Source: a virus
Lineage: Duplodnaviria > Caudoviricetes
Reading direction: 5' to 3' (one strand)
Length of the DNA: 64,000 nt
Virus record (IMG/VR): IMGVR_UViG_3300028593_000003
Position numbers and translations under genes: made by a program. The notes below the pieces were generated by a model. That model was given only the letters and a program-made list of their open reading frames with translations. It ran no database searches and was not told the DNA's origin. Shown here in pieces: positions 3,599 through 42,713 of the stretch. Position 1 is the first letter of the stretch, and each line of letters opens with the position of its first letter.

Positions 3599-3883
3599 TT
3601 ATTCTATTGTAAACAGTTCGTCCGGTAGACTTGTCGATAAAACATATCCCGATTCGAATGGGTAATAGGGTTTCCAGTTGCAGTACCCTTCCCACTCTTC
3701 TTCTCGGGCTTCCCGTGGTTCTCCCAGTATCTTACCGTTTATCCTTATCCTGACCATACAGAGGGGTTTCTCATTGGAGTTTGGTGCCCAGTAGAGGAAA
3801 AATGTCTTTTTGATATCCTGTACGGAATAGGACATTATGGCTATATTGTGGGGGCTTTTTTCTGTGGCTTCTTTCCAGAGCAT
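3599..3883 (-). CDS. Hypothetical protein, paralog of 4171-4470
   Basis: W.EA..KSPH.IAI and EEW.G...W.PY shared; C-terminal LPDELFTIE. Confidence 0.7.
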   Translation of the reverse strand: MLWKEATEKSPHNIAIMSYSVQDIKKTFFLYWAPNSNEKPLCMVRIRINGKILGEPREAREEEWEGYCNWKPYYPFESGYVLSTSLPDELFTIE

Positions 3884-3913
3884 ATGTGTGTGTACCGTCG
3901 TAGGGGCACCCTG

Positions 3914-4165
3914 TTATTCTATTACAGTTTCGGTGGGCGCGGTTACATCCTTCCATTCGTGTCTCCCCGATTCCTGATGGAGATACTCGGAGAGTGCGTT
4001 CATCGCTTTCTGATAGGAATTGAAATCGTTTATCGGGAGAAAATCGTCGGGTAAGTCCAAGTCAGTCCATCCCCTTATGAGACAGTCTTTCCTGTACTTC
4101 TGTAATCTGTATTTCACACCGTTTGAATATATCCTGTATTTTTCACCGTTCAATTCTATTGGCAT
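3914..4165 (-). CDS. Hypothetical protein
   Basis: ATG at 4165 just after the upstream stop. Confidence 0.55.
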   Translation of the reverse strand: MPIELNGEKYRIYSNGVKYRLQKYRKDCLIRGWTDLDLPDDFLPINDFNSYQKAMNALSEYLHQESGRHEWKDVTAPTETVIE

Positions 4166-4170
4166 TTCTC

Positions 4171-4470
4171 TCACTCCACTATAAAGAGTTCTTCCGGTAG
4201 GTAGAAGTTGTTTTTTGTGTGAAATTCTCCCATATAGGGCACCCATCTGTCGAACCCTTGCCACTCTTCGGGTTCCGCTTCCCTTTCTTCAAGAAGGTGT
4301 TCACCTGCCCTTATCTGCACCGTACAATGGGGTTTCGATGAATATCTTATGTGGCCGTCCAGTACATTGACGTTACCGTAAAGGTGAAATGTCCTTATTA
4401 TAAATTCCTTTTCATATTTCAATATCGCAATGTGGTGTGGACTTTTCCTTACCGCTTCGTGCCAGTTCAT
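4171..4470 (-). CDS. Hypothetical protein, paralog of 3599-3883
   Basis: Clear pairwise similarity; C-terminal LPEELFIVE. Confidence 0.7.
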   Translation of the reverse strand: MNWHEAVRKSPHHIAILKYEKEFIIRTFHLYGNVNVLDGHIRYSSKPHCTVQIRAGEHLLEEREAEPEEWQGFDRWVPYMGEFHTKNNFYLPEELFIVE

Positions 4471-4490
4471 CTATAATCTTCCTGTCAATG

Positions 4491-4892
4491 TCATCTTTCA
4501 GATTTTTTGCTATTTTTCCTATTATCGGGCAGTCTATGTCTTTGTGGTTTCCGCCACACAGGGCACACATCATAACACATTTCATATTCTTTGTATTTTC
4601 TCCATTTACCTGTTTCAAATCCCATCTCCTTGAACCATTTTCTCCATTCTCTTTTCAGTTTGCCCCATTCTTTCACTTCGTAGGACGAATACCCGTAGAA
4701 ATCACCGTCATCGTAGCTTATGTCGTGGACACCGTACACGGTTTCAATGGCCATCATCCTTGCGGAGCCGTTGATGTTCTCATCGAAAAATCTTATCGTT
4801 TCCTCGTCATCGTCTATGTCGAAGGGGCCTGAAATGACCATAGTTACATGCGTAATATCCGTGTTCTCGTCATACAGTATGAAGGGTTTCAT
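4491..4892 (-). CDS. Hypothetical protein
   Basis: ATGA coupling at 4889-4892 with GGGAG RBS. Confidence 0.55.
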   Translation of the reverse strand: MKPFILYDENTDITHVTMVISGPFDIDDDEETIRFFDENINGSARMMAIETVYGVHDISYDDGDFYGYSSYEVKEWGKLKREWRKWFKEMGFETGKWRKYKEYEMCYDVCPVWRKPQRHRLPDNRKNSKKSER

Positions 4893-5095
4893 TCTGTTTT
4901 CTCCCTCACTTCCAGTTCCACACATCTGTACCCTATGGACTTGTAGGCTTCTATGGCTGTATAGAGGGGGGCCCTGTGGGGATTGTATTGTCCGTCCTTG
5001 TTCTGCCAGGTAAAAAAGGCGAACCACGAATTGTGTTCACTATCCGTAATCCACCATATGTAGTTTTCGGGGGTTTTTATTCCGTAGTATTTCAT
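4889..5095 (-). CDS. Hypothetical protein
   Basis: ATG at 5095 after the upstream stop. Confidence 0.55.
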   Translation of the reverse strand: MKYYGIKTPENYIWWITDSEHNSWFAFFTWQNKDGQYNPHRAPLYTAIEAYKSIGYRCVELEVREKTE

Positions 5096-5099
5096 AACA

Positions 5100-5450
5100 T
5101 CACACCTTGAAAAGCCTTTCATCCAGTATAAATTTTGATGGGCAGAATGTCCAGTTGTATTCGTCAATAGCATCCGTCAACATTCTCTTTTCCTTGTCAT
5201 CCTTCAATTTCAATACGGTATTGTCCTGTGTCTTGTCATCTCCCCAAGTCGCGAAACAGAGAGGTGAAAAACCGAAATATGTTTCTTTGTTCCTGTAGAT
5301 GGCGGGAAATATGGCAGAATAAAGAAGAACACCATTCGAAGAAGGAAAAAAATCATCTTTTTTACCGAATTTTATTCCCCTCTTTGTCTGGTGTTCAATG
5401 ACGAAAGAGTAGTCTGTCAACCATTTCAATCTTATATATTTGTTCACCAT
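5100..5450 (-). CDS. Hypothetical protein, paralog of 6228-6587
   Basis: FF.SSN.VLLYSA.FP.IYR..ET.FG and A..EYN shared; C-terminal LDERLFKV. Confidence 0.7.
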   Translation of the reverse strand: MVNKYIRLKWLTDYSFVIEHQTKRGIKFGKKDDFFPSSNGVLLYSAIFPAIYRNKETYFGFSPLCFATWGDDKTQDNTVLKLKDDKEKRMLTDAIDEYNWTFCPSKFILDERLFKV

Positions 5451-5472
5451 ACAGTTTACCTTTTCTTGGGAA

Positions 5473-5901
5473 TTATTCCCAGCTCACCTTTCGGGCGCCT
5501 TGTCTGCCGCCCTTGAGCATGAGTATCCATTTACTATAGTCCGAGAGATTGTTGAATATGGTAGCCTCGCCTTTCATCGCTTTGGTCACGGCTTTTACTT
5601 GGTCATCGTATTCCATATCGCCAAATTTGTCCTGCCACATATCACACGCCGAACAAGTACCGAAATAATACTTGTATGAAAAGACTTTTCCGTTTCTCAA
5701 TACGAGGTCAACATCCATCATACCCTGCATATCGTCACTATATTCAAGGTAGAGGACTTCCTTGACACCGCCGAGTTCCTTGACGGCTTGGGCCAGAGCG
5801 TCACCCCATGTTATATTGTCTGTAACTTTGAGAAAATCGCTGACAGAGGGATCCTGTATTATTTTCTCCCCCCACTCTTTTATGTACTGTTTGAGTTTCA
5901 T
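5473..5901 (-). CDS. Putative internal virion protein (MKLKQYIKE N-terminus)
   Basis: Coupled to 5901-6191 behind CATAAATA; I-x-E motif. Confidence 0.55.
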   Translation of the reverse strand: MKLKQYIKEWGEKIIQDPSVSDFLKVTDNITWGDALAQAVKELGGVKEVLYLEYSDDMQGMMDVDLVLRNGKVFSYKYYFGTCSACDMWQDKFGDMEYDDQVKAVTKAMKGEATIFNNLSDYSKWILMLKGGRQGARKVSWE

Positions 5902-6191
5902 TATACGATGCCCTCCGCTTCGAATTTGTCTATGAGGCTTCCTACAATCTCCTGTCCAGAGGGGTTCAGATACCTTCTGGAGCCAAGTACACAGGACAGG
6001 ACGAAATCCGCGTTGAAATAGGGTAGTGTGTCCATATCGGGATAGACACCGGCATAATCACCCATTTTCTTTATCGCGAAAATCATTATTACCTTCTCGT
6101 CGTGGGTAAGGGAACGGAAAAAGGGTAAATCCTTCAATGCGTCACCCTTGTAGTCTATTTTCCCTTCCGAAAGGTATTTTTTCATTTTCAT
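5901..6191 (-). CDS. Putative internal virion protein (MKMKKYLSE N-terminus)
   Basis: ATG 6191 with GGGGGA RBS; CATAAATA at 6225-6232. Confidence 0.55.
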   Translation of the reverse strand: MKMKKYLSEGKIDYKGDALKDLPFFRSLTHDEKVIMIFAIKKMGDYAGVYPDMDTLPYFNADFVLSCVLGSRRYLNPSGQEIVGSLIDKFEAEGIV

Positions 6192-6227
6192 ATCGTTGGA
6201 TCCCCCTGATTGGTTTCTATACAATAT

Positions 6228-6587
6228 TTATGGAATTTCGAACAATTTTTCGTCCAATGACATTCCGTTCATATTGTACTCCTTTACCGCCTGGAGTAAA
6301 TCCTGTTTTTCCTTCTCTGAATGGAGTTTCAGGATATTGAGGTCGGCCCTCTCGTCACTTCCCCGGCAGGCCAGAACCAGATCCAATCTTCCAAAGTCCG
6401 TTTCCTCATCCCTGTATATTTCTGGAAAGGCGGCAGAATACAACAATACCTTGTTGGATGAGAGAAAGAACTCCCCCTTATTACCGTGACCGAAATACGC
6501 CTCACGGTGAGACTGTTCTGAAATATAAAATTTCAGGTTACCAATCCACTCAATCTTCAGATATCTTACATCAAAAAAGTTTTCCAC
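6228..6587 (-). CDS. Hypothetical protein, paralog of 5100-5450
   Basis: Pairwise similarity; C-terminal LDEKLFEIP. Confidence 0.7.
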   Translation of the reverse strand: MENFFDVRYLKIEWIGNLKFYISEQSHREAYFGHGNKGEFFLSSNKVLLYSAAFPEIYRDEETDFGRLDLVLACRGSDERADLNILKLHSEKEKQDLLQAVKEYNMNGMSLDEKLFEIP

Positions 6588-6617
6588 TATGTCGTTTCCA
6601 CTTCTTTCAGTATTTTT

Positions 6618-6947
6618 TTATGTGGTTCTCTTGGGGAAAATCTCAATGAGATTACCTTTTGTCTTTCGTGTGTCACGATTATTATCCTGACCTTTGACAC
6701 CCTTTTGTTCGTTTTCACCATTGTATTTCTCCAAGAGAAAATCCCAATACTCTTCCATCCTGTCCGTCACATCCTCTATCTCCATCATTATTTTCTGTAG
6801 ATTGGAAATATCGGGTGTATTTGGATGATAGTCAAAATATCCGAACCTTCTGGCCTTCATTATCGCCTTTATCAATTCGGATAACTCCTCAACCAGTTTG
6901 TCCTCTATGTGTCCTATGTGTTTGTACTTCGGGTCACTCATTTCCAT
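6618..6947 (-). CDS. MazG-like NTP pyrophosphohydrolase
   Basis: EELSELIKAI...EIEDV acidic helix pair. Confidence 0.6.
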   Translation of the reverse strand: MEMSDPKYKHIGHIEDKLVEELSELIKAIMKARRFGYFDYHPNTPDISNLQKIMMEIEDVTDRMEEYWDFLLEKYNGENEQKGVKGQDNNRDTRKTKGNLIEIFPKRTT

Positions 6948-7408
6948 TCTCCATCATAATTGTCCGGCGGCTTGACTTTTGGTAAGGATATTCTTATGGA
7001 TGTTCCTATTGCCGAAATTCGGGAAATTGGATACCAATTCCTGATGATGAGTTTTTTCTTTTTCCATCTGTCCTCGATCTCAACCGTAAGATTATTACCA
7101 GCGTGAGATTTCGCCCAGTTCTTAGCGTTTTTCAAAAACCAGAAATCCTTGAAGTAACCGGAACAGTATTCGGATACCGTGGCCCTGTACCTTCTCATCT
7201 CTTCACTTCCCCACCATACAATCTTATCTTGTCCGCCAGTTTCCTGTCTTTTTCCTCTATTTTCAGATACTCGTCTATACAACATTGGTATCCCTTCAAT
7301 AGGGGTTTCCTGTATCTGTGAAGTTTCACAATCTCCATACCGGATGAATGGCTTTTCTGACAAAGTGGTACATTCATCGGGGGTTTTCTTCCTTTTGTTC
7401 CCTTTCTC

Positions 7409-7813
7409 TTATACATTTTCGTTCTCCTTATCTTTCTCATCAAGGATTTCTTTTACATAGTTGGTAAATCCCTCGTAGTCCACGGGGCTCGCCTCTATAC
7501 ACCAAGAGTAACCGTACCTTATTTTTGTGAGCTTGATACTATTTCGTTGTAATGTCTCAAGTTTCTCCTGTAAAACGATATTTTCTTTAATCAATGAACA
7601 TCCCTGACAGGAAAATCTCAGTATTGGCGGTAAGGTAATTCTCTCCTTCAGTATTTTATCGAGCTGTTCCTGTAGATAATCCCTTTCGTGTTTCACTTTG
7701 TCAAACTCTACACGGGTGACAAATGCTCGGAGGGGTTTACAGGAAACACACAAATCACCCGTATCCCCTGTTCCACCCAAGTCTATTCCACAGCCCATAC
7801 ATTTCTTATTCAT
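7409..7813 (-). CDS. Hypothetical protein with N-terminal CxxC...CxxC
   Basis: ORF track; Cys motif followed by coiled coil. Confidence 0.55.
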   Translation of the reverse strand: MNKKCMGCGIDLGGTGDTGDLCVSCKPLRAFVTRVEFDKVKHERDYLQEQLDKILKERITLPPILRFSCQGCSLIKENIVLQEKLETLQRNSIKLTKIRYGYSWCIEASPVDYEGFTNYVKEILDEKDKENENV

Positions 7814-8452
7814 TTTTTATCTCCAAGTTGATAATGTCCATATCATTTATGATTTTTTCGACGGTTTTCTTGATGTCATCCCTGCTGTATCCCCCCAAGT
7901 TTTCACCGTGTATTCTCAAAACAAATTTTGCACAGTCAAGTAATACATATAAGTCTCTCAAAGTTATTTTCATTTTATTCTCCGTCTATAAATTATACAT
8001 CGTCCTCATCATCTTCTTCCATATCCAACCCGATTAAAATCATAAGGGGCAGAAGAGGAAAAAGAAGAAGAGCAAGAATCTCTATAAACCATTCTTTTAT
8101 CTTATCCATACATCAACCATCTCAACGGTAATCCTATCAGAGTACCAAGTACGAAGCCCGGAACTATCACCGTCAGAAAACATAAAGCAAGTAAAACAGT
8201 CATCATCAGGATAACATAGGTGAGCCACTTGAAATACCAAACTATCCATTCAATCACATTATTTGTTTCCGGTATTTTCGGTTCCGTTATCATCTTATTT
8301 CTCCGTATATCTATATTCGAGTACACCCAAAAGAAGGATGCCCACAAAAAGAAACCATCCCCATCCTGATATACCATTTACAGCCATATACACAGCACCA
8401 CCAATACAGATGGACGAAGGTATAATAGCAGCCAATGTCACAAAAAACAGTT

Positions 8453-8884
8453 TCATCGTTCTACCACCTTTATAGTTTTTATTCTTACAGGCCACACATA
8501 GGGCACATATTTCTTGTGGTTCCAGTATTCACCGTAATGGTGAGGATGTTTCCATTGAAGGTTGACCTGATGTGAATGATGGAAATCCTTTCGCCCCAAC
8601 CATATCGGCCACCTGACTTTTTTCGTGTCCACTTTATACAGGGGCATCGTATTGTTGTAGCCTCTGTGCACCCACTCTTTCACCATTACATTGTAATATG
8701 CCTTGAGGGCATCGGGATAATCCATCCACATCAATACGGCCGGATGATGTTTCCATCCACCTTTACCCCTACCCTCTATTATGTCAATGATGATTTTGGC
8801 CTCAAGCCTCTGTTTACCGAGCCTCTTGTAGTCAAGGACACGGGCAGATTTCTTGAAACTCTTGTATGGAAGAAATGTCTGCAT
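8453..8884 (-). CDS. Pyrimidine-dimer DNA glycosylase-like protein (MSMEG_6728/DenV-related)
   Basis: MQTFLPY...LD.KRLGKQR.E...W.HHPAV.MW...EW..RGY signature. Confidence 0.85.
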   Translation of the reverse strand: MQTFLPYKSFKKSARVLDYKRLGKQRLEAKIIIDIIEGRGKGGWKHHPAVLMWMDYPDALKAYYNVMVKEWVHRGYNNTMPLYKVDTKKVRWPIWLGRKDFHHSHQVNLQWKHPHHYGEYWNHKKYVPYVWPVRIKTIKVVER

Positions 8885-9141
8885 TACTTTTCACACTCTT
8901 TCAACTCGTAATCATAAAATAGGTCAGTATCATATTTTTCCGTGTTTTCGTGAGTTCTCACATATTTGAGTTTATACCAACACTCTTTACTGCTACAGGA
9001 TGCTGTCATCACCAATCCTTTTCTATTGTCTATTTTTATACAGACAATATCGCCCACTTTGTATTGGGGCTTCAGGTCTGGCGCACTATCGCCACAGGAA
9101 CACAAAAACAACACGACAATCAACAACACAATCTTTTTCAT
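8884..9141 (-). CDS. Putative lipoprotein with SH3/KOW-like domain
   Basis: MKK, hydrophobic stretch and lipobox-like Cys (LCSC); YKVGDIV motif. Confidence 0.55.
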   Translation of the reverse strand: MKKIVLLIVVLFLCSCGDSAPDLKPQYKVGDIVCIKIDNRKGLVMTASCSSKECWYKLKYVRTHENTEKYDTDLFYDYELKECEK

Positions 9142-9335
9142 TCAGGAAAACCTCTTTATCAGAAAATAACAAAACAATAACAGCAATCCCATAGGGAATA
9201 TGAGACACAATGTAAACAGGAAAAACCGGAAGGCATCCTTTTTGGTCTTGAAATGAGCGCCATCACCGGGCATAGAGTACATCTCTATCCTGTCGGGGTC
9301 AATAAAGGCCCATACTCTTTTCAGAAGTGTTTTCA

Positions 9336-9503
9336 TTATTTCTTATTTCTGTATTTCTTCAGTATTTTCTCGACTTCTTTTGGTTCCAGTAAAGCAAGAG
9401 CCTTGAGGGTCAGTTTGATAATTTCCTTCACTTGAGCGATGGAGACTTGTACCTTTTTCCCCTCAAGTAATGTAATGTTTTTTGCAAATTCATTCATATT
9501 CAT
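9336..9503 (-). CDS. 55-aa basic protein, weakly resembling the HU N-terminal helices (not in the ORF track)
   Basis: AAGGAG RBS; TAATG coupling; MNMNEFAKNITLLEGKKVQVSIAQVKEII. Confidence 0.55.
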   Translation of the reverse strand: MNMNEFAKNITLLEGKKVQVSIAQVKEIIKLTLKALALLEPKEVEKILKKYRNKK

Positions 9504-9874
9504 ATTATTCTCCTTTTTTTATCCAGATATCCAGACTTTTTGGTATAGATGAAGCAGTAGAATAAACAGATTTCCTTTCAACTATACTGTAAATTTTGTA
9601 ACTTATTCTCACATCAGAATGGGGATAGTCAGAAATGAAAATCTCACATTCTTGGTCACATTTTGATAAAGCTTCCACCAATTCTCTTACTTTCATATTT
9701 GATCCTTCAATTTCTTTCCACAAAACGGACAATATTTGGCTATCGGGCCGTCATCGGGATACCATATATCGTGAGTAGATAAAAATATCCATGCGTCATT
9801 CTCAATCTTTATCCATTTCTTGAACTTTTTACAACTACATCTTTCTTCTATTGATTTCACTTTCTCATTCTTTT

Positions 9875-10399
9875 TCATCCCGGCCCCCTGCTGTAGGTCA
9901 TATTCTTATCTGGCATCGTTGATTTGTAAATACAATTTTCATCTGCCCGGAGGCTGTCACCCTCAAACAGGGTGTAGCCACCATAGTAAAAATCAATACG
10001 GAGATATTTTCTCCTTATCTCCTGCGGGGGTTTCCAATCCTTTCTCCATATTCTCCAATCATTTTTTGGTTGTATAACCTCTTCTTGAACATAATAGGAA
10101 TAACAGAAATCACCCTCATACGGTGAACGGCCCGGTGTACCGGAAAACTCTATGGAGCCGGCGGTAGACGATGTTCCCATAAACAGATACCCACTTGGGG
10201 TTTCAGAAAATGTGGCCCGGATTTTCTCCATTTCCTCTTCAGCTTTTTTTCTTATTTCTTCTTTCCTTTTCTCTTCTTCTTCCTTCTTCTTCAGGTAAAT
10301 TTCCTTGTGTTTGTCGAAAATCCTCTTACCGTGCTTCACAAAGAAAGCAACTACTTCTTTCTCGTTCTCTCCATTATATGTTATAATTTCTGCTTCCAT
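9875..10399 (-). CDS. Hypothetical protein
   Basis: 174-aa ORF packed between neighbours. Confidence 0.6.
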   Translation of the reverse strand: MEAEIITYNGENEKEVVAFFVKHGKRIFDKHKEIYLKKKEEEEKRKEEIRKKAEEEMEKIRATFSETPSGYLFMGTSSTAGSIEFSGTPGRSPYEGDFCYSYYVQEEVIQPKNDWRIWRKDWKPPQEIRRKYLRIDFYYGGYTLFEGDSLRADENCIYKSTMPDKNMTYSRGPG

Positions 10400-10400
10400 C

Positions 10401-10844
10401 TTATACCCCGTATGTCAATGACCGTCTGGACGGGAGTGATACTTTCCACTTTCCCCTACTGTAATCTGAATAAACAACAATCCTTTCACAAAGGAAATGT
10501 AGTAAATCATCGTATATTTTTCTTGTCTCAAATCTCAACTTTTCATATCTTTTCACATATCTTTCTTCTTCATCGTCTATATAGATGTGCATTTCAGGGT
10601 CATTCATCAACGCCCATTCAATCGGCAGAGTGTGTATCTGGACTTTATCTTTTTTCCTTGTTACTCTTGCACCTATTATATTATAACAGTCCTCTCTCTC
10701 ATCCCTGATAAGGACTTCATACCAACCGTCATAATATCCCGGCTCTGTGTCAACATAGTGTATGTCTACATTACCCACTACACACTCAAGTTTACCGGAA
10801 GGGTCTGCTTCTTTCAATTGTCTTATAAGTTCTTTTGTTTTCAT
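10401..10844 (-). CDS. Hypothetical phage protein
   Basis: MKTKELIRQL.EADP start typical of small phage proteins; ATGA coupling. Confidence 0.65.
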   Translation of the reverse strand: MKTKELIRQLKEADPSGKLECVVGNVDIHYVDTEPGYYDGWYEVLIRDEREDCYNIIGARVTRKKDKVQIHTLPIEWALMNDPEMHIYIDDEEERYVKRYEKLRFETRKIYDDLLHFLCERIVVYSDYSRGKWKVSLPSRRSLTYGV

Positions 10845-11065
10845 ATTTCAAACAACTCTTTGTCCAGAAAGACATCATACATTTCATAGGGCACACAATC
10901 ATTACACCGGACAAATCTGGATGTCTTGTGTGATGACTGTTCGCTATAAAGAACCTCATACCATCCCTCACCGGATCTATCAAACAGGATTTCCGGATTT
11001 ACATGGAATACTTTCCCCATACAATCAGAATACCAGAGATCGGGATAAAAAATTTTCACTCTCAT
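10841..11065 (-). CDS. Small SH3-like protein (WY.D..G..F.V family)
   Basis: Paralog of 11683 and 11895; ends LDKELFEI. Confidence 0.65.
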   Translation of the reverse strand: MRVKIFYPDLWYSDCMGKVFHVNPEILFDRSGEGWYEVLYSEQSSHKTSRFVRCNDCVPYEMYDVFLDKELFEI

Positions 11066-11256
11066 ATCTCAATCTACTGCCCAATCTTCTTTCACAATCT
11101 TGACACCAAATTTCTTTGCCCATTGTGTTGCATTACGTCTGGTATGATTTATAGTTGGAAAGGTAGCATCGTTGTTTATATACAGGTCATCCCGTATAAT
11201 TATACTCCAAGTATAACCGTCCAGAGTGAGCTTTTCAATTATAAGTAATTTTCCTT

Positions 11257-11481
11257 TCATATCTCAAATAGGCTCTCATCAAGAAAGTATTTTGTCGTGG
11301 GCACACAAAACTCAGCCAGAATGAACTTTCTTTTACCGGATGTGACTATTTCGTAGTATTTGACACCCGCTTTGGTGAAGTATGGAGTATCATAAACATC
11401 CAGTATTGACCCCTCTTTCACAAGATTATGGCCCGCCAGGAGGACTTGTTTGATAGTTTTCACAGTTTTCATTTCAATCAC
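11257..11481 (-). CDS. Small SH3-like protein
   Basis: Beta-rich; ends LDESLFEI. Confidence 0.6.
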   Translation of the reverse strand: MIEMKTVKTIKQVLLAGHNLVKEGSILDVYDTPYFTKAGVKYYEIVTSGKRKFILAEFCVPTTKYFLDESLFEI

Positions 11482-11682
11482 TTTCTATTGAAAGGATACA
11501 GTTCTGGTTGTTTTCTTCTGTTTGACATCGACAAGCTGATAAATTGCTACTTCCCCGTCCTCGATACTATCTGGATCATCATCTGCCAAAAAATAGTATC
11601 CTTCACCATCATCTTCTTTCACCACATACATCGTATTGGGATATTTTACTTTCTTTTCTTTCTTTTTCATAAGCCTCTCCTA

Positions 11683-11892
11683 TTATATTTCAAATAATTT
11701 GGGGTCAAGGACAAATTTGTCCGCGAGCTCCCCTATAAGAATAACATCTTCTTTTCGTATAAAGCCATAACTACCGTCCGCCCTCACATAATAACGAAGA
11801 TCGGTAGGATCTTCTTTCACCTCAAAGACATTACCGATTTTATCGGCATACCAAGCGGCCTCTTTTTTCGCCTTTATAATTTTGACTTTCAA
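11683..11892 (-). CDS. Small SH3-like protein
   Basis: WYADKIGNVFEV; ends LDPKLFEI. Confidence 0.65.
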   Translation of the reverse strand: MKVKIIKAKKEAAWYADKIGNVFEVKEDPTDLRYYVRADGSYGFIRKEDVILIGELADKFVLDPKLFEI

Positions 11893-11894
11893 TT

Positions 11895-12104
11895 TTATAC
11901 CTCAAACAGTTTATCATCTACGGTACTTTCAAGAATAATCTCTACATCCTTCTTGTGAAAACCGTGACTACTGTGAAGAAGGACAAAATATTCATCGGGA
12001 GCGTAGGCATAATCTCTTACAAAAAAAGATTCTCCTATCTTGTCTTTATACCACGCACCCCTTTCGGAATAGCTAACTACTTTTATCAGGTATCTTTTTT
12101 CCAT
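11895..12104 (-). CDS. Small SH3-like protein
   Basis: WYKDKIGESFFV; ends VDDKLFEV. Confidence 0.65.
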   Translation of the reverse strand: MEKRYLIKVVSYSERGAWYKDKIGESFFVRDYAYAPDEYFVLLHSSHGFHKKDVEIILESTVDDKLFEV

Positions 12105-12232
12105 TTATAGTCTTTCCACAATTTGGGCACACAGGGTTCCAGTTCGCCCTGTCGGGAAATTTCGGTGTGAGTATCAATTGCCACAGATTTCCACAGCACT
12201 TCCACTCAACAATTGTCCACGAACCCCTTCTG

Positions 12233-12595: not shown

Positions 12596-12619
12596 ATCCT
12601 CCACACTTTTATTTGTATT

Positions 12620-12648
12620 ATTATACCATATTTCGGCAGACAAGTAAA
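12620..12648 (-). promoter_or_regulatory. Early promoter (T4-early-like)
   Basis: GTTTACT-17 nt-TATAAT with extended -10 TG. Confidence 0.75.
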
Positions 12649-12667
12649 CAAGTATATGTATAAACAC

Positions 12668-12836: not shown

Positions 12837-13142
12837 TTATGATATTTTGAACAAATCGTCTGACAGAGATAAATCGATCAAATCATCCGGTTGGAAACCA
12901 AATGACTTTTGGATGTGTCCATTTGTAAAATGCCTCGGTTCATCAAACTCCACAATAATGCCCAGATATTTACCACTATTACTTATCACCTTACCCGTTT
13001 CATCATAGAAGAAATGAAAATCCTGGCAAGGTGTTATTACTCGTACCGAAGTTCCTACGGGGAACATTTCAAATGTATTATCGAGTGTATTGTATTTTTT
13101 CTTTTTCTCCATCATCACATCATAAACACTTGGCATAAACAT
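12837..13142 (-). CDS. SH3-like hypothetical protein
   Basis: AGGAG RBS before ATG 13142; FPVGTSVRV...G.VI...VEFD; ends LSDDLFKIS. Confidence 0.6.
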   Translation of the reverse strand: MFMPSVYDVMMEKKKKYNTLDNTFEMFPVGTSVRVITPCQDFHFFYDETGKVISNSGKYLGIIVEFDEPRHFTNGHIQKSFGFQPDDLIDLSLSDDLFKIS

Positions 13143-13146
13143 TCTC

Positions 13147-13533
13147 CTATCGAGTTTCAACTGTAACAATATAAATCATTCGAAGGGCTTTTTCCCATTC
13201 CTTTATCGGGTTATTTTTTTCTTTCCTTCTCTTCCAGTAAGAGTATTCCCACCGTTTGTAAACATTTTGGAACCAATCTTGTCCGTTTTCTTTTCTTTCG
13301 ATAACGATATTTACCTTGTCTCCCGGCTTTATGGACGGAACCTTCTTGGATTTTGGTGATGAATTATAACCGATACCACCGTTATATCCTATGACATAAT
13401 TTATACCATCATTCTTGTTGTGATACAGAATATAAATATATTTCGGGTCTGCGTCTACTATTTCTCCTTCAATAATATAATCACGAAATACTATTTCTTT
13501 TTCTGACGAGTAATTCAGTATATCCTCAAACAT
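13147..13533 (-). CDS. Hypothetical protein, possibly OB-fold (MFEDIL start)
   Basis: GGAG RBS; IKPGDKVNIVIE motif. Confidence 0.55.
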   Translation of the reverse strand: MFEDILNYSSEKEIVFRDYIIEGEIVDADPKYIYILYHNKNDGINYVIGYNGGIGYNSSPKSKKVPSIKPGDKVNIVIERKENGQDWFQNVYKRWEYSYWKRRKEKNNPIKEWEKALRMIYIVTVETR

Positions 13534-14667: not shown

Positions 14668-14678
14668 TTTATATTCTC

Positions 14679-16284: not shown

Positions 16285-16803
16285 ATGAACAAATCACTAA
16301 TAAGATGGGATAGCTACTTTCGTGGTCTGACCATATCAATCGCACAAAACAGTCAATGTCTTTCAAGAAAAATTGGGGCAATCATCGTTTTGGACAAGTC
16401 CATTATCTCCACCGGATACAATGGGCCCCCAAGGGGAGTTCCCCCCTGTGATGAAAGATGGGGGAAAGATCATTCTCTGGAATATGATTTTCCAGAGAAA
16501 GTGAGACAGGGGAAGTGTCCGAGAAAAGTGATGGGGTATGAAAGTGGTCAGGGGCTTGAGTATTGTATCGCCGGCCACGGGGAACGAAACGCCCTCATCA
16601 ATGCCGCTCGACACGGTATAGCCGTGAAAGGGGCGACAATGTATTGTAACTGCCCCATACCCTGTACACCTTGTCTTGTGGAAATTATCAACGCAGGTAT
16701 TATCGAAATTGTTGTCACAAGTCTTGAGACATACGACAAAACATCGGAATATCTTATAATGCAAAGTGGAATAGTTGTGAGGAAATATTATGGTAGTATG
16801 TGA
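16285..16803 (+). CDS. cd: dCMP deaminase
   Basis: GYNG.P.G, HGERNA and PCTPC zinc-deaminase motifs. Confidence 0.92.
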   Translation: MNKSLIRWDSYFRGLTISIAQNSQCLSRKIGAIIVLDKSIISTGYNGPPRGVPPCDERWGKDHSLEYDFPEKVRQGKCPRKVMGYESGQGLEYCIAGHGERNALINAARHGIAVKGATMYCNCPIPCTPCLVEIINAGIIEIVVTSLETYDKTSEYLIMQSGIVVRKYYGSM

Positions 16804-17323
16804 AATACATAAAACAAGAGACAAATATAAAACAACGGCACAATTTATGTTTGATAGACATATGTTTGAGGAAGTAAGCGGAAATGTAAGACTGCTTCTA
16901 CCGGAACCTATGAGACACGGGGAAATAGAAATAAACAGGGATGAAGTTAGTTTCAATTTATATGTGAATGTCACACAAGACCAGTATTTATTGACAGCTT
17001 ATACACAAGACAAAAAAACGAGATTTGATGCCTGGCAGTCATCAAATAACATTATTTTACAGTTCCACGATGGGGGAACCCATTGGCACGAATTTACCAG
17101 AACCATCTCCATATGTACAACTGCTAGAAGCCCAAGTGGAAATATAACCATCCTGTTACCGGAACACACTTGTGATGAGATAAAAGCCGCGGCAGATGAA
17201 TACAATACAATGCTCACAAACAATATGAGGGGGGAGGATTTACATTTCGGAAGAAAAATTGATGTACCCGATTTAAGGAAGGATATGAATTACATTCCAG
17301 ATTTTCTATTCAAAATAGAATGA
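16790..17323 (+). CDS. Hypothetical protein; C-terminal half resembles the 5100/6228 family
   Basis: SSNNIIL...AADEYN; ends IPDFLFKIE. Confidence 0.65.
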   Translation: MVVCEIHKTRDKYKTTAQFMFDRHMFEEVSGNVRLLLPEPMRHGEIEINRDEVSFNLYVNVTQDQYLLTAYTQDKKTRFDAWQSSNNIILQFHDGGTHWHEFTRTISICTTARSPSGNITILLPEHTCDEIKAAADEYNTMLTNNMRGEDLHFGRKIDVPDLRKDMNYIPDFLFKIE

Positions 17324-33997: not shown

Positions 33998-34120
33998 TTT
34001 TCTCTCCTTCTTTCTTCTTTACACAGAAGAAATACTCACAATCTGCACATTGATATACATACATTGTACTCCACTCTTCTTTTCTTCTTGTATCTTCACA
34101 ATCACAAATTGGGCATTTCA

Positions 34121-34900: not shown

Positions 34901-35105
34901 TATTCATTCTCCTGTATCAATTCATCAACATCAATAGGTAATCGGTCAAGAATATCTCTCAATTTACCCAATTCTGTAAGTGCCTCATCCCTTTCCTTCT
35001 CTGCTTTCGCAAGTCGGGTAGTAAGATAACAAATGGAACAGTTTTCGGGGTCATGGTCAAGCCCGTGGATATGACATCTAATTTTTGTCTCTGCCAATGA
35101 TTCAC

Positions 35106-35969
35106 TCATCCTTCCATCTCCTTTTTTATTACCTCTGCCGCATATTCCATCTTGAACTCTGGATAGAACTTGTCTATCCTGTCATAAATGTGAGCTATGT
35201 ATCCGAGATACACATAATCGTAACTTGAAGTGACAAAAATCATATCACTCAAATTCCTGATTATTGTATCGGAAAACAGAGCGTGGTAGTAACGATGTTC
35301 TTCCGGTAATAATATTATAACATTGTTTTCAAGGATTGTAAAGATGTCAGGATTGAGATATCCTATAGAATAGTCACGGGTTGAACCCAATAAAACCGTA
35401 CATTTCATATCGGAATATTTGATATTCTTGTCAAAAACGACATTCAGGTTGGTATATTCATCCACCTTTTCTTTCGAAATGTTCGAATAATCCGAGTATT
35501 TTGTTGAAGAAGTGGGGTAATTCTTGCCAAATTCCACCAAATACTTCTCAAAAGAGCCCAGTTTATCGAAAATAATACCCTTAAAACCGATTGTAAGGGG
35601 TCGCGGCTCGACTTTATTTAGCTTTAGGGTATCTATCGAGTGTATTTTGGGGCAGTAGTGGGGAAAATAGTGAAAATCGGGCCTGTAATTGACGGCCGGC
35701 TCAAACAAAGACACATTGTATTTCTTTAGCCAGCGGGCTTCATCAGGTCTTATCGCAAGAAATTTGTCAAAAATAATGACACGGGTTTTTTTCTTGAGAT
35801 AAAACTTGAGAACTTCAGTTTGAAGTGCGAAAGGTTTCGGATTTGAGGGATTGTAGGGGATGTATTCAATATAAACGGCGTCACAATCAGAAAAATCGGT
35901 ATCTGATAAGGTGACGCCGTTCAATACTTTGTTAAAAACTGGACTACAGTTTAAGGTAAACAATGTCAT
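35106..35969 (-). CDS. Hypothetical protein, possibly GT-B-like
   Basis: 287-aa ORF overlapping the Ro60 stop; alternating beta/alpha pattern; fold assignment is weak. Confidence 0.5.
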   Translation of the reverse strand: MTLFTLNCSPVFNKVLNGVTLSDTDFSDCDAVYIEYIPYNPSNPKPFALQTEVLKFYLKKKTRVIIFDKFLAIRPDEARWLKKYNVSLFEPAVNYRPDFHYFPHYCPKIHSIDTLKLNKVEPRPLTIGFKGIIFDKLGSFEKYLVEFGKNYPTSSTKYSDYSNISKEKVDEYTNLNVVFDKNIKYSDMKCTVLLGSTRDYSIGYLNPDIFTILENNVIILLPEEHRYYHALFSDTIIRNLSDMIFVTSSYDYVYLGYIAHIYDRIDKFYPEFKMEYAAEVIKKEMEG

Positions 35970-37302
35970 TATGGATATTTTTTACAAACTCCTTTTCATA
36001 CTCTATGATGTAGGAGACTACCGCTTCGGAGAAGCCGTCAATATGAACCCAATCACCATAACCCACACCATTACGGTATGAAGCCACATTGATGAGGTAA
36101 TACTGTGCTTCTGGCAGTTTGTTTGGGATCTCGTCGTGAATTTGTTCATCGGTGATGACGATCAGACGATCAAACTTCTCCCTTTCAACAATCGCTTTGA
36201 TTGCTCTACCGAGCCAAGTTCCACCGTGAGGCTGAGAACGAGAAATAGCATTGGCCAAATTAAATCCACGGTGAGCATCGGCAATTTTTCTCACATCTGT
36301 AGAGAATGAGTACACGGAAACATCCTCACAGATTTCTCTTGCGATGAGAGCAACACCATTAGCGGCGTCAATCCTCGTCATATCGGACTTGTCAGAAAGA
36401 GCCATATCCATAGAACCGGAAACATCCACAAGAATTATTGTCTTACCTTCCAAGGTGTCAAGGTTCCTGATGGACTTGAACATCAGGGTTTCAAGCTGGT
36501 TCTTGAACTTTGGAGCATATTTTACTGCCGCAATAAATCTGAAAGGGAGAACCCTGTCAGTTTTCATATTTTCAAGACCACGAAGAATGATGTTCTCATC
36601 CACATTTGCCTGGGTCATATTACGAAGGTTCCTCAAGAGTGCCAGAGCACCAAGGCGGTTCTCCATAATAAGCTCTTCCCAAACAGCTTTCTTGTCCTTA
36701 CCGGCAGAAAGCCCCGTTTCCCAAGTTTTTGGGATTTCCAATTTGTTGTCAATAAGTTTCTTCCAGACATCAGCCTGTGAAGCATTGAGAGGTTTCGCGT
36801 GAGAAAGAAAAAGAACATCTCTCAATTTTACCGAATAGTCACGGTTATATTTGGCGAGCTGGTACTCGTCAAATTTCGTGAAGGCTTTAGCCAGACCTTT
36901 CTTTACCTGTGCGGCAAGAGGGGTCTTACCATCTTTCCAGTAGAGAGAAAGGAACTCCGCCAACTCGTCAGGACGCTGGATTATCCTTCCCAATGTCTTT
37001 GCCACATATTTCCTATGGTCAATATGGCGTACCATTCCCGTAACAAGAAGAAGAGGAACGTGACGCAAATTCATCCTCTCTCTTGCCTCGACAGCAAGAT
37101 TTGCCACGGTCTTACCATTGACTTGTGGAATAGTTGCGAGTATCCTGTCTGCAACGGATGCTCCGTCCTCATAAAAGGACTTTTCCCAAAGCAAGCAGGA
37201 CATCGTTGAACGTCTGAGGATTTGCTCAGGTGTGAGAACCTTTGCAGAACCACCCTCATAGGTTTTAGGAACACGGTTTTTGAAGGAATTATATTTCGCC
37301 AT
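35944..37302 (-). CDS. rsr: Ro60/Rsr TROVE-domain RNA-binding protein with C-terminal vWA
   Basis: TYEGG, LLWE.SFYE.G, LRHVPL, FDEYQLAKY, LRD.LFL.H.KP, TWET.LS, ALLRNLRN, PFRF, DVSGSM, ITDEQ. Confidence 0.93.
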   Translation of the reverse strand: MAKYNSFKNRVPKTYEGGSAKVLTPEQILRRSTMSCLLWEKSFYEDGASVADRILATIPQVNGKTVANLAVEARERMNLRHVPLLLVTGMVRHIDHRKYVAKTLGRIIQRPDELAEFLSLYWKDGKTPLAAQVKKGLAKAFTKFDEYQLAKYNRDYSVKLRDVLFLSHAKPLNASQADVWKKLIDNKLEIPKTWETGLSAGKDKKAVWEELIMENRLGALALLRNLRNMTQANVDENIILRGLENMKTDRVLPFRFIAAVKYAPKFKNQLETLMFKSIRNLDTLEGKTIILVDVSGSMDMALSDKSDMTRIDAANGVALIAREICEDVSVYSFSTDVRKIADAHRGFNLANAISRSQPHGGTWLGRAIKAIVEREKFDRLIVITDEQIHDEIPNKLPEAQYYLINVASYRNGVGYGDWVHIDGFSEAVVSYIIEYEKEFVKNIHNDIVYLKL

Positions 37303-38671: not shown

Positions 38672-39775
38672 TTACTTTTTTTTCCTCTTTCTATTATTAC
38701 CATTGATTTCTTCTTCATCGGCAACGGTTTCAAGTTCCGCTTCTGCTTCCTCGACTGCCCTATTGATGGCTGAATAACCAGTTTGTTTCAACCATTCATT
38801 GAACTTTGAGAGGAGCTGGGGATATTTACCGATGTTGGCTTCCGCTTTATCCCAACCGACACCTAGCTTTTCTTCTTTCTTCCCGTTGATAACTGTATAT
38901 GTCTTGCCCTCTTCTTTCACAAAACCGGCATTGATGAGATGTGTCAACAATCCAGCATACGGATTGATACCGTTGATGTAATCAATACTCACCGTCGCGT
39001 TTTGGAAAGGTGGATACATTCTGTTCTTGATTGTAATCGCTGTAATTTCGTTTCCGATAATTTTCTTTCCCTCTTTTATCGGGGTCTTTTTCAGGTTGAT
39101 AAGAATAGACGGGAACAATCTCATCGCCTTTCCACCACCAACCTGATCCGGCATCGGGATAACTCCGGGCGAACCATACAAATGACCCGTCACGATACCG
39201 ATGCTTTCCTGTTCAATACAGATATTCAGAAGGAGTTTCAGGAGAGCCCTGATATTCTTCTGCAACAGTCCTTGGTCTGCCTTCGGGTCACCACCGAGAG
39301 CATCCTCGAAGGCTTTATATCTGTCAACTCCACCCATACTGTCTATACCGATAATCAATTTTTTCTGCCCCGTGTCTTTTATCTGGGCAAGGTTACTCCT
39401 GATTTCATTTTCCCAAGGAGTGTATATATAAAGGGTGTTCTCAACATCAAGGCCCCACCTTACACAAAAATCTCTGTCCGTTCCCCTTTCGGTATCAATT
39501 ATAATGGGGTAATAACCTTTCTTCTGGGCTTCAGCCATACAGAGAACCATAAAACTTGATTTCATAGTGTGCTCTGGGCCGACAATACCGACAAGGCTTC
39601 TGTTCGGGATACCTCTCTCAATATCCCCCGATAAAACACGGTTCAAGTCGAGACTTGGAGTTTTGATCCAATCGGACACGGAGGCGATGTCTGACTGTGC
39701 CATAATAGATGCGTGAACACCCTTTACATTTTTGGCTATTCTTTTTTGTAAATCCTCAAAAAAACTTTTATCCAT
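38672..39775 (-). CDS. uvsX: RecA/UvsX-like recombinase
   Basis: T.S..LN..LSG, GPEHTMKS Walker A variant, IDTE, IDSMG, GGG.A, KNR..PPF. Confidence 0.92.
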   Translation of the reverse strand: MDKSFFEDLQKRIAKNVKGVHASIMAQSDIASVSDWIKTPSLDLNRVLSGDIERGIPNRSLVGIVGPEHTMKSSFMVLCMAEAQKKGYYPIIIDTERGTDRDFCVRWGLDVENTLYIYTPWENEIRSNLAQIKDTGQKKLIIGIDSMGGVDRYKAFEDALGGDPKADQGLLQKNIRALLKLLLNICIEQESIGIVTGHLYGSPGVIPMPDQVGGGKAMRLFPSILINLKKTPIKEGKKIIGNEITAITIKNRMYPPFQNATVSIDYINGINPYAGLLTHLINAGFVKEEGKTYTVINGKKEEKLGVGWDKAEANIGKYPQLLSKFNEWLKQTGYSAINRAVEEAEAELETVADEEEINGNNRKRKKK

Positions 39776-39794
39776 AAAAATCTCCTGTTATTAT

Positions 39795-39823
39795 ATTATA
39801 ACATATTTTATCACTATTGTAAA
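39795..39823 (-). promoter_or_regulatory. Early/middle promoter for uvsX
   Basis: TTTACA-17 nt-TATAAT with extended -10 TG. Confidence 0.75.
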
Positions 39824-42018
39824 GATATGTAGCTGAAACCGTCTTTTTTCTCCGCAATGTATATCCTGTCTATGTCCACATCGTTCACTTCTTTCCTGTG
39901 GCTTACAAGGAACATCTTGCTCCCATCTTCCTGTTGCTTTATTTTCAATATCTGCATAACCTTCTCAATTGAATAACTGTCGAGTGAGCTGTCCAGTATT
40001 TCATCCAGTTCAAGTATATCGGGGAAAATACCCGCCTGTATTCTGGCTATGTCCAGTAGAGCCATCTGTAGAGCGAAATCCACGCTCTTCGCCTCTCCAC
40101 CAGAAAGATTACCGTAAGAGCAATTGGTGATGCCCGGGCCCTTGATTTCCTCGTCCAACCAGTTGTCCAGAACAATATAGAATGAGTGGCCGACTTCCGA
40201 TAGATAATGGTTCACCCTCTTGTTCAAAAACGGGATGATGGAACTGATGGCATACTGCTTAACGTGCTCATCACGACAAATCAATTTTACGAAATCGAGA
40301 TAATCACTCACACCGGCTAATTTGGTTACCTGTGCGGACATTGCCCTCTTCTCCCTCTGAAGTTCTTCAATCTTCTCTTCGTGCTCTTTTATCAATGACT
40401 GAAATCTTTCTTTCGATTCTTTTTCGTGTCTGACCTTCTCTTCCAGTAATAATATTTTATTCTTGAGTGTCTGGATTTTCTCTGCCCGCTCATTCACCTC
40501 TATGAGTTCGATGTTCATCTCCTTCAATTCATCTTCCAGATTTTCTATCTTGTTTGAAATCTTTCCCTGTTCTTTCTTGAGATGTTCCAGTTCCTTTGTC
40601 TTTTCTTTTTTCTCTTTCTGGAAAGAGATGCCATTTTCCCTCTTCTCATCGAGATGTTTGTAACTGTCGAGTTTCCCCCTCAATTCAATCATCTTTATTT
40701 TTATGTCCGTCAAGTTTTTTATTTCCGTATTCAGTTTTATCCTGTTTTCCTTGGCTCCTGTCATTGCCGCTTCGAGAGTTATTTTCTTCTTTTCCAAAGT
40801 TTCTATTTTTTTGTTCAAGTCTTTCGTGCTTTTTGTTTTCTGTTTTGCCAGTTTCTCACTATCAATAAGAGAGCCACAAGTAGGGCATACAGTCACGCCC
40901 AGTAACAATTCAAGGCTGCTCGTAGACGATTTGATGTGTGTTTTGTTCTCTATAATGTCGTGTGTCACAGCATCCAAGTCTTTCCTGATGGCATCCACAT
41001 TGGTATTGATATGATTTACGTCTGTCATCATTGAGGCAATCCTGACATTCAACTCCTCTATTGATGTATGTTCTTTTGTATAAAAGTCATATTCCTTTTT
41101 TACCTGACCGGAAACTTCTATATCCTTGTCCACATCCCCGATTTTTTCCAATTGGCTCTCGATGAACTTTATCTGGCTCTCCGCCCCGGAAATCTTTGAT
41201 ATCAGGTCGTAGTTGGTTCTGGACAACCCGTTCAACTCTTCCTGTCTTTTTCTTTTTTTCTCTTGGAGATTTTCCTGTTTCTTCAGAAGATTTCCATTTT
41301 TACTTTCCTTGTATTCCTTTTTCGCTGTCTCCAACTCATCCTCATAAGACATTATTCCAGATATCTGCTGTTTGATACTCTCGACCTGTCTTTGGATATC
41401 CTCGACATTTTTTTCAATATACTCCCTTCTTGTTTTGTATGTGAATGTCTTGTCAGCCACCACCTTCAATTTTTCATTACACTTGTTGCTCAATTGGCTG
41501 AAAAGCTCCAGACCGAAAACTGTTTCAATGAACTTTCTTTTCTTGTCCGCGGTCATACTCAGTATCGGTACAGATGAATTGAGATTGGAATAGACGAGGG
41601 AAATAAAAGTCTTGAAATCCATACCGATGATTTCTTCCTCTATTTCCTTTTGATAGTCAATCTTATGTGACGGGGTTGGCATCAACCGGCCGTTCTTATA
41701 GACTTCCAACCTATCCGGTTTCAATGCCCTCAAAATCATATACTGCATTCCACCCTTATCGAAGGTGAGACAGACCTCGCAGTTTTTTCTGTTTTTCCAG
41801 TTTACAATACTCTCCTTCCTGACATTCCTGTTCACCTTCCCGAAGAGGGCAAATGGGATTGTCTCAAGGAAACCAGATTTTCCCACGGCATTACTCCTGT
41901 CTTTGGTCACATCGTTTCCCAAGACAAGGTTGAGGCCCGGAAGAAAATCCACATCCTGTACTATTTTTCCATAACTGAAAAAGTTACGAAACTTTACATT
42001 CTTGATTTCAAGTTTCAT
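39814..42018 (-). CDS. gp46: Rad50/SbcC-like recombination ATPase
   Basis: SNAVGKS, CPTCG zinc hook, LSGGE, LDEILD. Confidence 0.93.
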   Translation of the reverse strand: MKLEIKNVKFRNFFSYGKIVQDVDFLPGLNLVLGNDVTKDRSNAVGKSGFLETIPFALFGKVNRNVRKESIVNWKNRKNCEVCLTFDKGGMQYMILRALKPDRLEVYKNGRLMPTPSHKIDYQKEIEEEIIGMDFKTFISLVYSNLNSSVPILSMTADKKRKFIETVFGLELFSQLSNKCNEKLKVVADKTFTYKTRREYIEKNVEDIQRQVESIKQQISGIMSYEDELETAKKEYKESKNGNLLKKQENLQEKKRKRQEELNGLSRTNYDLISKISGAESQIKFIESQLEKIGDVDKDIEVSGQVKKEYDFYTKEHTSIEELNVRIASMMTDVNHINTNVDAIRKDLDAVTHDIIENKTHIKSSTSSLELLLGVTVCPTCGSLIDSEKLAKQKTKSTKDLNKKIETLEKKKITLEAAMTGAKENRIKLNTEIKNLTDIKIKMIELRGKLDSYKHLDEKRENGISFQKEKKEKTKELEHLKKEQGKISNKIENLEDELKEMNIELIEVNERAEKIQTLKNKILLLEEKVRHEKESKERFQSLIKEHEEKIEELQREKRAMSAQVTKLAGVSDYLDFVKLICRDEHVKQYAISSIIPFLNKRVNHYLSEVGHSFYIVLDNWLDEEIKGPGITNCSYGNLSGGEAKSVDFALQMALLDIARIQAGIFPDILELDEILDSSLDSYSIEKVMQILKIKQQEDGSKMFLVSHRKEVNDVDIDRIYIAEKKDGFSYISLQ

Positions 42019-42320
42019 TATTCTTCTTTTGCTGTGGCGTCTTTCTTATCCTGTATTTGTCGGGCAAGACCCAAAAGGGCGTAACCGGCGATGTCCTGAT
42101 ACGGACTTTCTCCAAGTGCATTTGGACTTGTTGCCAATCTGAATAATTTGTCAAGTATCCTCACTACACAAAGAGCATCATCCATCTGTTCGGTCTTTAT
42201 TCCCTCCGGATAAAGTATCTTCATAACCTTACCAGACTGACCGAAACTGTCACCGTAAGCAAGTTGCTTCTTTGTGACTATTTTTCCTACAGCTTGTCCT
42301 ATTTTTTCATAATCTGCCAT
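42018..42320 (-). CDS. Nucleotide-modification-associated (DUF1599/Nmad1-like) alpha-helical protein
   Basis: K..AYGDSF...DKLFR...DIAGYALL. Confidence 0.6.
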   Translation of the reverse strand: MADYEKIGQAVGKIVTKKQLAYGDSFGQSGKVMKILYPEGIKTEQMDDALCVVRILDKLFRLATSPNALGESPYQDIAGYALLGLARQIQDKKDATAKEE

Positions 42321-42713
42321 TTATTCCACCTCAAACAATTTATTATCAAGTGCGGGTTCGTATCCTTCTTCTCTTTTTTTGTATTCTCTCAATTGTGAAA
42401 GATTTTTCATCAATCCTTTCTTGAAAAAAATAAATTCCCTGAATGGTAAGCCAAGAACTTCCTCTATTTCTTCCAATGTGAGACTGTTTTTCATCTCATA
42501 GGTTTTGTGGAGAAAATCCAATCTGTCTATGAGCTGAATAAAATCATCCACAGTTTCGGCTCTGGCCAAGTAATCCCGAATTACTTTCAAAATATCTTTC
42601 GGGTCACAGAAGTGTCTCCAAGTATATGATGGGCCCGCAGTAGCCGTATTCGAATCCCAATATACATTATACTCATTATAATTCACATTGTTTATATTAT
42701 TGAATATGCTCAT
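42321..42713 (-). CDS. Hypothetical protein
   Basis: Coupled between gp47 and 42018-42320; ends LDNKLFEVE. Confidence 0.65.
   Translation of the reverse strand: MSIFNNINNVNYNEYNVYWDSNTATAGPSYTWRHFCDPKDILKVIRDYLARAETVDDFIQLIDRLDFLHKTYEMKNSLTLEEIEEVLGLPFREFIFFKKGLMKNLSQLREYKKREEGYEPALDNKLFEVE

Follow-up and report, generated by a model that had tools for sequence, protein, structure and literature searches.

A shared C-terminal tail on unrelated small proteins of a distant T4-like phage clade and its possible role as a docking tag

The tail-bearing genes and their setting

The virus record IMGVR_UViG_3300028593_000003 was analysed over a stretch of 64,000 nucleotides (the window, meaning the whole of that stretch), which belongs to a distant T4-like myovirus that has not been cultured. 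Eleven small proteins encoded there, called carriers below and named by their first coordinate, end in one C-terminal motif, [LIV][DPS]xxLFx[IV]. A preliminary description made from the sequence had pointed them out, and all eleven open reading frames (ORFs) are present where it placed them, with the endings it quoted. One coordinate has to be read differently: the carrier at 16790 and its ending are real, but the position marks the start of a plus-strand gene whose tail lies at 17297-17323. The carriers are the following (aa, amino acids).

3599..3883, minus strand: 94 aa, family A, ending ...STSLPDELFTIE; exact product on 19 contigs and a called gene in contig L225
4171..4470, minus strand: 99 aa, family A, paralogue of 3599 at 44% identity, ending ...NFYLPEELFIVE; a called gene of 99 aa in L225
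5100..5450, minus strand: 116 aa, family B, ending ...KFILDERLFKV
6228..6587, minus strand: 119 aa, family B, paralogue of 5100 at 43% identity, ending ...MSLDEKLFEIP
10841..11065, minus strand: 74 aa, small beta-rich family C, ending ...DVFLDKELFEI
11257..11481, minus strand: 74 aa, family C, ending ...KYFLDESLFEI
11683..11892, minus strand: 69 aa, family D, ending ...KFVLDPKLFEI
11895..12104, minus strand: 69 aa, family D, ending ...ESTVDDKLFEV
12837..13169, minus strand: at most 110 aa, start uncertain (TTG), ending ...LSLSDDLFKIS
16790..17323, plus strand: 177 aa, first gene past the strand switch and sole plus-strand carrier, with a sigma70-like promoter match at 16733-16760, ending ...NYIPDFLFKIE
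42321..42713, minus strand: 130 aa, helical, between gp47 and gp46 and two genes after gp55, ending ...PALDNKLFEVE

In the 122 likely genes of the window (20,067 aa), from whose residue frequencies the expectations were computed, the strict motif should occur 0.34 times at any position and 0.004 times within 0-1 residues of the C-terminus. It was observed 11 times at that end and not once inside a likely gene; over all six-frame ORFs of at least 30 aa, 11 occurrences are C-terminal and 4 internal. The possibility that the motif is no commoner at C-termini than in the background, which the preliminary description had itself raised, is thus contradicted by the counts. Codons for the conserved residues L1, L5, F6 and I/V8 vary between carriers (CTA, CTG, TTG, CTT, GTA, ATT, etc.), and the DNA beyond the carrier stops is unrelated among them. 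Since the codons differ, selection acts on the peptide and not on the DNA, in agreement with the earlier view of a peptide-level signal. Of the ten carriers that were looked up, nine are recorded as gene products in public metagenome assemblies, seven of these on 19-21 contigs each; the exact sequence of the tenth, 12837, is absent from that record.

Outside the tail, the carriers have little in common. BLASTP of their bodies yields four paralogue pairs (3599/4171, 5100/6228, 10841/11257 and 11683/11895) and three singletons (12837, 16790 and 42321), and the two last-named pairs look like one small beta-rich superfamily. In comparisons between families by hhalign, only the last 11-20 columns align, with probabilities of 2-15%; because the profiles align over the tail alone, the bodies are regarded as unrelated. 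The dissimilarity of the bodies noted in the preliminary description therefore stands, while its count of at least four families is conservative, six or seven being a fair figure. In searches of PHROGs and Pfam with the window carriers, only 11683 was matched: its residues 1-55, a part that stops short of the tail, match phrog_9181 and phrog_17910, PHROGs to which no function is assigned. The other Pfam matches of the window carriers fall under the cut-off, tblastn found no match to 11683 in cultured phages, and a homologue search with family B found none outside the window phage.

The setting of these genes is that of a T4-like genome. PHROG matches identify several core genes around carrier 42321, and the structural genes follow.

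38672-39775: UvsX
39814-42018: gp46/SbcC
42713-43711: gp47/SbcD
43711-44121: gp55
45-64 kb of the window: baseplate, tube and sheath genes

The sheath protein has only 34-42% identity to those of cultured T4-like phages, and INPHARED holds no DNA match to the window. An exact 40-mer of the window's contig had no counterpart in IMG/VR, JGI metagenomes or GTDB genomes. Bases 1-16,400 consist of densely packed small minus-strand ORFs, as is typical of the early 'hyperplastic' region in T4-type phages, with 78 sigma70-like promoter matches against 46.8 +/- 5.9 in shuffles. The late-promoter sequence (T/C)ATAAATA occurs in the window about as often as chance predicts (9 and 8 vs 6.5 expected), so that the timing of the carriers rests on the sigma70-like promoter enrichment and the gene context; on this basis, they are probably small accessory proteins made early. 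Beyond the window, the phage was followed along public contigs, and about 190 kb were reached in all. No further carriers occur in some 50 kb of late genes past the window, in the polymerase region or in the 10 kb before the window, which confines the tag in this phage to 3.6-17.3 kb and the gene at 42321.

Some other genes of the window complete this picture. A 143-aa ORF of the small-gene region (8453-8884) is a homologue of T4 endonuclease V by Pfam (Pyr_excise). The baseplate hub protein (PHROG 150, 56029-56889) has an aromatic acidic C-terminus of its own, ...DVPLEDFFF. An IS605-type TnpB gene lies within the phage at 22840-24267; its closest copies (81-85%) occur several per genome in metagenome-assembled genomes of Anaerolineae, Thermoflexus and Thermotogota, a hint that the host may be a Chloroflexota bacterium of digesters or sludge.

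A modular, clade-wide C-terminal motif

Relatives of the window phage were gathered by a sheath search in IMG/VR, and several whole records were fetched. Public samples that contain the clade include 3300028564, 3300036958-63, 3300046710 and ERZ2725xxxx. The richest in carriers is G006 (156 kb), whose polymerase piece is 54% identical to that of G001 and in which about 23 ORFs end in [LIF]-[PDS]-x-[ED]-[LVI]-F-x-[IVL] plus 0-2 residues. Two adjacent carriers were found in G011, two in G001 and one in G004. G004 (61 kb) and G006 both come from IMG/VR sample 3300046710 and are 30% and 70% complete by CheckV; given the common sample and their complementary gene sets, the two probably belong to a single genome of about 217 kb, which would hold about 24 carriers. 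One of the G006 carriers lies at 76404-76706, and further carrier tails read ...KFKLPKELFEIE and ...IPKIDKELFKID.

A logo of the tail was built on the 41 motif-bearing ORFs listed, including 3 that are probably spurious. Every one of the 41 has F6, while L/V/I5 and I/V/L/M8 are nearly invariant, position 2 is P, D or S, and positions 3, 4 and 7 are charged. Position 1 is L, I, F or V throughout and never Q. The tails come in variants, rich in D in the window phage and in P and K in G006, and position 5 can change from L to V. The four residues ahead of the motif alternate hydrophobic residues with K/E, and 15 of the 41 ORFs carry one or two extra residues past it, mostly E. The full tail thus spans about 12 residues: phi-K-phi-K/E (phi, hydrophobic), then [LI]-[PD]-x-[ED]-[LV]-F-[KE]-[IV], 0-2 residues and the stop.

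The bodies bearing this tail in G006 include recognizable domains. One carrier is a NADAR protein by Pfam (E 2.5e-21), in which the model stops at residue 145 and the tail occupies residues 146-160; a second resembles the Ribosomal_L12 C-domain (E 1.7e-9); the others comprise one Cys-rich family and several orphans. With the NADAR and L12 carriers added to the hhalign result, the possibility that all carriers belong to one homologous family, likewise raised at the outset, is answered in the negative. The G007 orthologue of the NADAR protein (E 5e-44) ends in ...REEVGYVDK and has no tail, and hence the tail is modular, gained or lost on orthologues.

Conservation of the tail exceeds that of its surroundings. 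Among 1.8 billion representatives, P0107 is the only remote homologue of carrier 42321, at 34% identity; it occupies the same slot in the order gp55-gp47-x-gp46 and ends in ...VLEDKLFEV behind an unrelated linker. In G004, a different carrier of 86 aa (...LDPNLFKME) sits directly after gp47, in the same place as 42321. Across five orthologue or paralogue pairs with body identities of 29-46%, the tail is identical at 27 of 40 positions (68%), compared with 5 of 60 (8%) in the preceding 12 residues. The tail is thereby shown to be a modular, selected, clade-wide C-terminal short linear motif.

Candidate readers of the tail

The most economical reading, and the one towards which we lean, is that the tail may be a docking tag read by one common partner. 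It would act as a portable C-terminal docking peptide, joined by a variable linker to small accessory proteins with unrelated folds, mostly encoded in the early-type small-gene region, and the partner that reads it would gather all carriers at one place. Of the shared docking tag proposed in the preliminary description, the peptide-level tag on unrelated proteins is supported and extends over the clade.

As the reader, the phage sliding clamp gp45 is the best single guess by analogy with T4, if a doubtful one. In T4, the tails SLDFLFG, TLDFLL and SLDFLYEAND of gp43, gp33 and gp55 bind gp45 and are near-identical and interchangeable (PMC2988020). Were gp45 the reader, the carriers would be brought to replication forks and late-transcription complexes on the phage DNA, like those three T4 proteins. 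The two sets of tails share a general design, that is, a short hydrophobic and acidic peptide at the extreme C-terminus, on a variable linker, borne by unrelated proteins; both begin with L-D and contain L-F. They differ in that LD and LF are separated by two polar residues in the carriers (a helical 1-5-6-8 spacing), whereas the T4 tails have a compact LDFLF, and in that the tail here is found on 11 to about 23 small accessory proteins instead of the three core proteins of T4.

Several observations favour the clamp. A gp45 gene is present in G001, G003, G006 (L121:2500-3255), G007 and a close relative, where it was identified through PHROG 223 and synteny; the Pfam gp45 models PF09116 and PF02916 fail to detect the clamp of this clade. 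As the preliminary description had noted, gp55 of the window has no hydrophobic tail and ends in ...AINYEAIREKE; the gp55 of the clade lacks a tail of its own, whereas in three phages gp55 and gp47 are succeeded by a small protein that bears the tail. In one G011 carrier the spacing, LDDLFEI, is like that of T4. The carriers also include the conserved small protein near gp55 and the NADAR protein, a DNA de-ADP-ribosylase; NADAR acts on DNA (PMC11825919, PMC11543638).

Bacterial clamp clients have partly similar motifs. Pol II, Pol IV, delta and Hda bind the bacterial beta-clamp through QL[SD]LF or QxxLF motifs, which are often C-terminal, end in L-F and serve many unrelated clients of one hub. 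The carriers lack Gln at position 1, have L-F at positions 5-6 and conserve I/V two residues past F; the combination of Gln1 with L-F (or LxL) at positions 4-5 of a penta- or hexapeptide occurs in none of the 41 motif-bearing ORFs.

Other findings weigh against a common docking partner, and against the clamp above all. Over the roughly 190 kb to which the window phage was followed, no gp45 turned up; P0124 derives from other samples. The C-terminal polymerase fragment of this phage (P0025, which shares its contig signature with the window proteins) retains a separate T4-like tail, ...GLNLFFGE, and 89 polymerases of the clade end in [LVI][NDG]xFF, unlike the carrier pattern LDxxLFx[IV]; this compact hydrophobic polymerase tail, which in G006 reads ...RLSLFFK, is the orthologue of the T4 epitope. 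The RNase H of the clade ends in NKLMMLY or NNLLKMY. Since the known clamp clients here carry another pattern, the idea that the tail is the same peptide as the polymerase's clamp epitope is ruled out by the comparison of GLNLFFGE and [LVI][NDG]xFF with LDxxLFx[IV]. The T4 analogy drawn in the preliminary description is accordingly weakened as to the clamp. In addition, the carrier bodies are orphans, most of them without any tie to DNA. A gp33-like fold was considered for 42321; BLASTP against T4 gp33 gave nothing significant for 42321 (E 0.44) or G004_2454 (E 0.79). The AlphaFold2 monomer models, with pLDDT of 58 for the small beta-rich family and 46 for carrier 42321, are too low in confidence for a fold search, and the ESM Atlas model of 42321 is likewise poor; accessibility of the tail is only suggested by such models.

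Some further observations concern polymerase-type tails and the polymerase genes. A 128-aa ORF about 6 kb before the window start (L225:16362-16748) ends in ...WDRLFFIE, a polymerase-type tail (LFF-x-E), and is a candidate for a true clamp client. A free-standing GIY-YIG ORF interrupts the palm-coding part of the polymerase gene in the window phage (L196:7615-10876), and HNH endonuclease ORFs split that gene in G001 (G001 17073-21356); G001 holds more than 10 HNH paralogues of about 290 aa, all ending in C-C-L-N-K-I-N-x-L-I-G.

A docking tag need not be read by the polymerase pocket of the clamp. It is tentatively conceivable that a dedicated reader, neither that canonical pocket nor a known protease, gathers some 10-25 fast-evolving accessory or counter-defence proteins such as NADAR. 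New effectors would then join the set by gaining a tag of 8-12 residues.

A reader of another kind would be an AAA+ unfoldase or protease, for which the tail might be a degron that times early proteins or an SspB-like tether that makes the carriers adaptors for host targets. We consider this unlikely. C-terminal degrons and adaptor tethers are well known from ssrA, MuA and the SspB XB region, and the extreme C-terminal position of the tail on many unrelated, probably early, proteins from a region rich in sigma70-like promoter matches resembles them. The window phage encodes a ClpP (Pfam CLP_protease, L196:10879-11487) directly after the C-terminal polymerase fragment and a PrkA AAA+ protein; a T4-type prohead protease is encoded elsewhere in this phage. 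Yet ClpP was not found in G001, G003, G004, G006 or G007, all of them incomplete records, so that it was seen in the window phage only, and the relatives without it include G006, which has the most carriers; as a reader conserved alongside the tag, ClpP was therefore rejected. Neither ClpX nor ClpA turned up in the stretches of phage DNA that were examined. The peptide is unlike any known degron, with no sequence likeness to SspB XB (LRVVK) or ssrA (LAA), short extreme C-terminal peptides each read by one machine, and the one or two residues past the motif in 15 of 41 ORFs mean that a fixed free carboxylate is not part of the tail.

Two further candidate readers, ThiF/JAB and PrkA, were set aside because they are conserved in all relatives holding the region and do not discriminate. 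A ThiF/E1-like gene of about 200 aa and a Prok-JAB gene adjoin gp44-gp62-gp45 in every relative in which this region is held, at the following places.

L199:1703-3123: ThiF/JAB region of the window phage
G003 13635-16235: ThiF/JAB region of G003
G001 32962-36382: ThiF/JAB region of G001

They are accompanied by an ORF of about 90 aa ending in ...DIAG (G003), ...DVAGF (L229) or ...EAGLV (G001), and together these genes look like a phage-encoded module for ubiquitin-like conjugation. The pair more likely serves the small protein of about 90 aa ending in Gly, its more natural substrate. In the window phage, the genes for the major capsid protein and the large terminase flank a complete PrkA-YeaH(DUF444)-SpoVR triad (L108:3228-8177); PrkA is also present in G001, G002 and G004.

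Mimicry of the C-terminal tip of gp32 has a little less in its favour than a protease reader and is improbable. The tail would dock on, or compete for, the replisome and recombination proteins that read this tip, much as T7 gp2.5 and gp4 share acidic tails and the bacterial SSB tip serves as a docking peptide, with a critical aromatic residue and several proteins docking at one site. The extreme C-terminus of gp32 in the clade is indeed an acidic amphipathic peptide (...EELLRELDKI in G006, ...EELLRELDEL in a close relative and ...DIMAKLETI in G001, compared with ...DLDDLLNDL in T4), and the G006 carrier consensus LPKELFKI equals the gp32 tip LLRELDKI at five of eight positions (1, 4, 5, 7 and 8). 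However, where the carriers have the invariant F6, gp32 has D or E, amphipathic helices in general show the i, i+4, i+7 pattern, and the aromatic is the last residue in the T7 and SSB tails, whereas the carrier F stands three to five residues from the end.

That the tail has no external reader, either because the tails bind each other in a hetero-oligomer or condensate or because each caps its own small domain, is quite improbable. The short amphipathic tail has a beta-like lead-in, and many carriers, of only 58-100 aa, might depend on a partner for folding. The same tail is nevertheless found on well-defined autonomous domains (NADAR and L12-C), the G007 NADAR orthologue manages without it, the preceding linker varies in length and sequence, and eight residues are short for a stable contact.

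A cargo tag for a shell or capsid was rejected. Cargo peptides such as the T4 capsid-targeting leader and those of encapsulins and microcompartments are likewise short terminal amphipathic tags on a linker, shared by unrelated cargo, but the carriers are encoded in the small-gene region rich in sigma70-like promoters, outside the late operons; the roughly 50 kb of late genes hold none, and the late cargo candidates have a separate N-terminal leader. Many ORFs near the polymerase start with a leader of the MKFKNYLTE or MRLYEFLSE type (L196:3-1392, 16100-16912), and the putative capsid cargo of the window phage bears the MKFKNYLTE type. As this N-terminal leader is distinct from the C-terminal tag, the phage appears to use two separate terminal tags.

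Least probable by far is a shared ending without protein function, whether a recombination relic of gene ends or a nascent-peptide or translation-termination signal: several carriers do overlap the following start codon at their ends (ATATGA or TAATG), and T4-like hyperplastic regions shuffle genes, but the idea is largely refuted by the codons, which differ at every conserved position. Against it are also the unrelated downstream DNA, the intergenic gaps that follow some carriers, the retention of the tail at 34% body identity and across phages with about 55% identical polymerase pieces, and an offset to the stop that varies by 0-2 residues, unlike that of arrest peptides.

Meaning for large T4-like phages

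There are precedents for C-terminal tails that several proteins share and one hub reads, such as the T4 clamp epitopes, the T7 acidic tails and the degrons. A search of the full-text literature found no description of this tail, and the peptide itself, the breadth of its carriers and the clade appear to be undescribed in the literature searched. The small early genes of large phages are for the most part orphans, and a shared, selected tail gives a functional handle on them: it marks orphans that belong together, among them a likely anti-DarT NADAR enzyme, and the peptide of 8-12 residues can be used directly as bait for the partner.

Under the docking-tag reading, about a tenth of the accessory genes in these phages would work via one common partner. 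If the clamp is that partner, the 'tool-belt' of T4 would grow from three clients to dozens, with a second class of motif; if the reader is something else, a new sorting principle would be at hand. A dedicated reader, if it exists, would constitute an undescribed recruitment system of large T4-like phages, in which the tail may serve as an address label.

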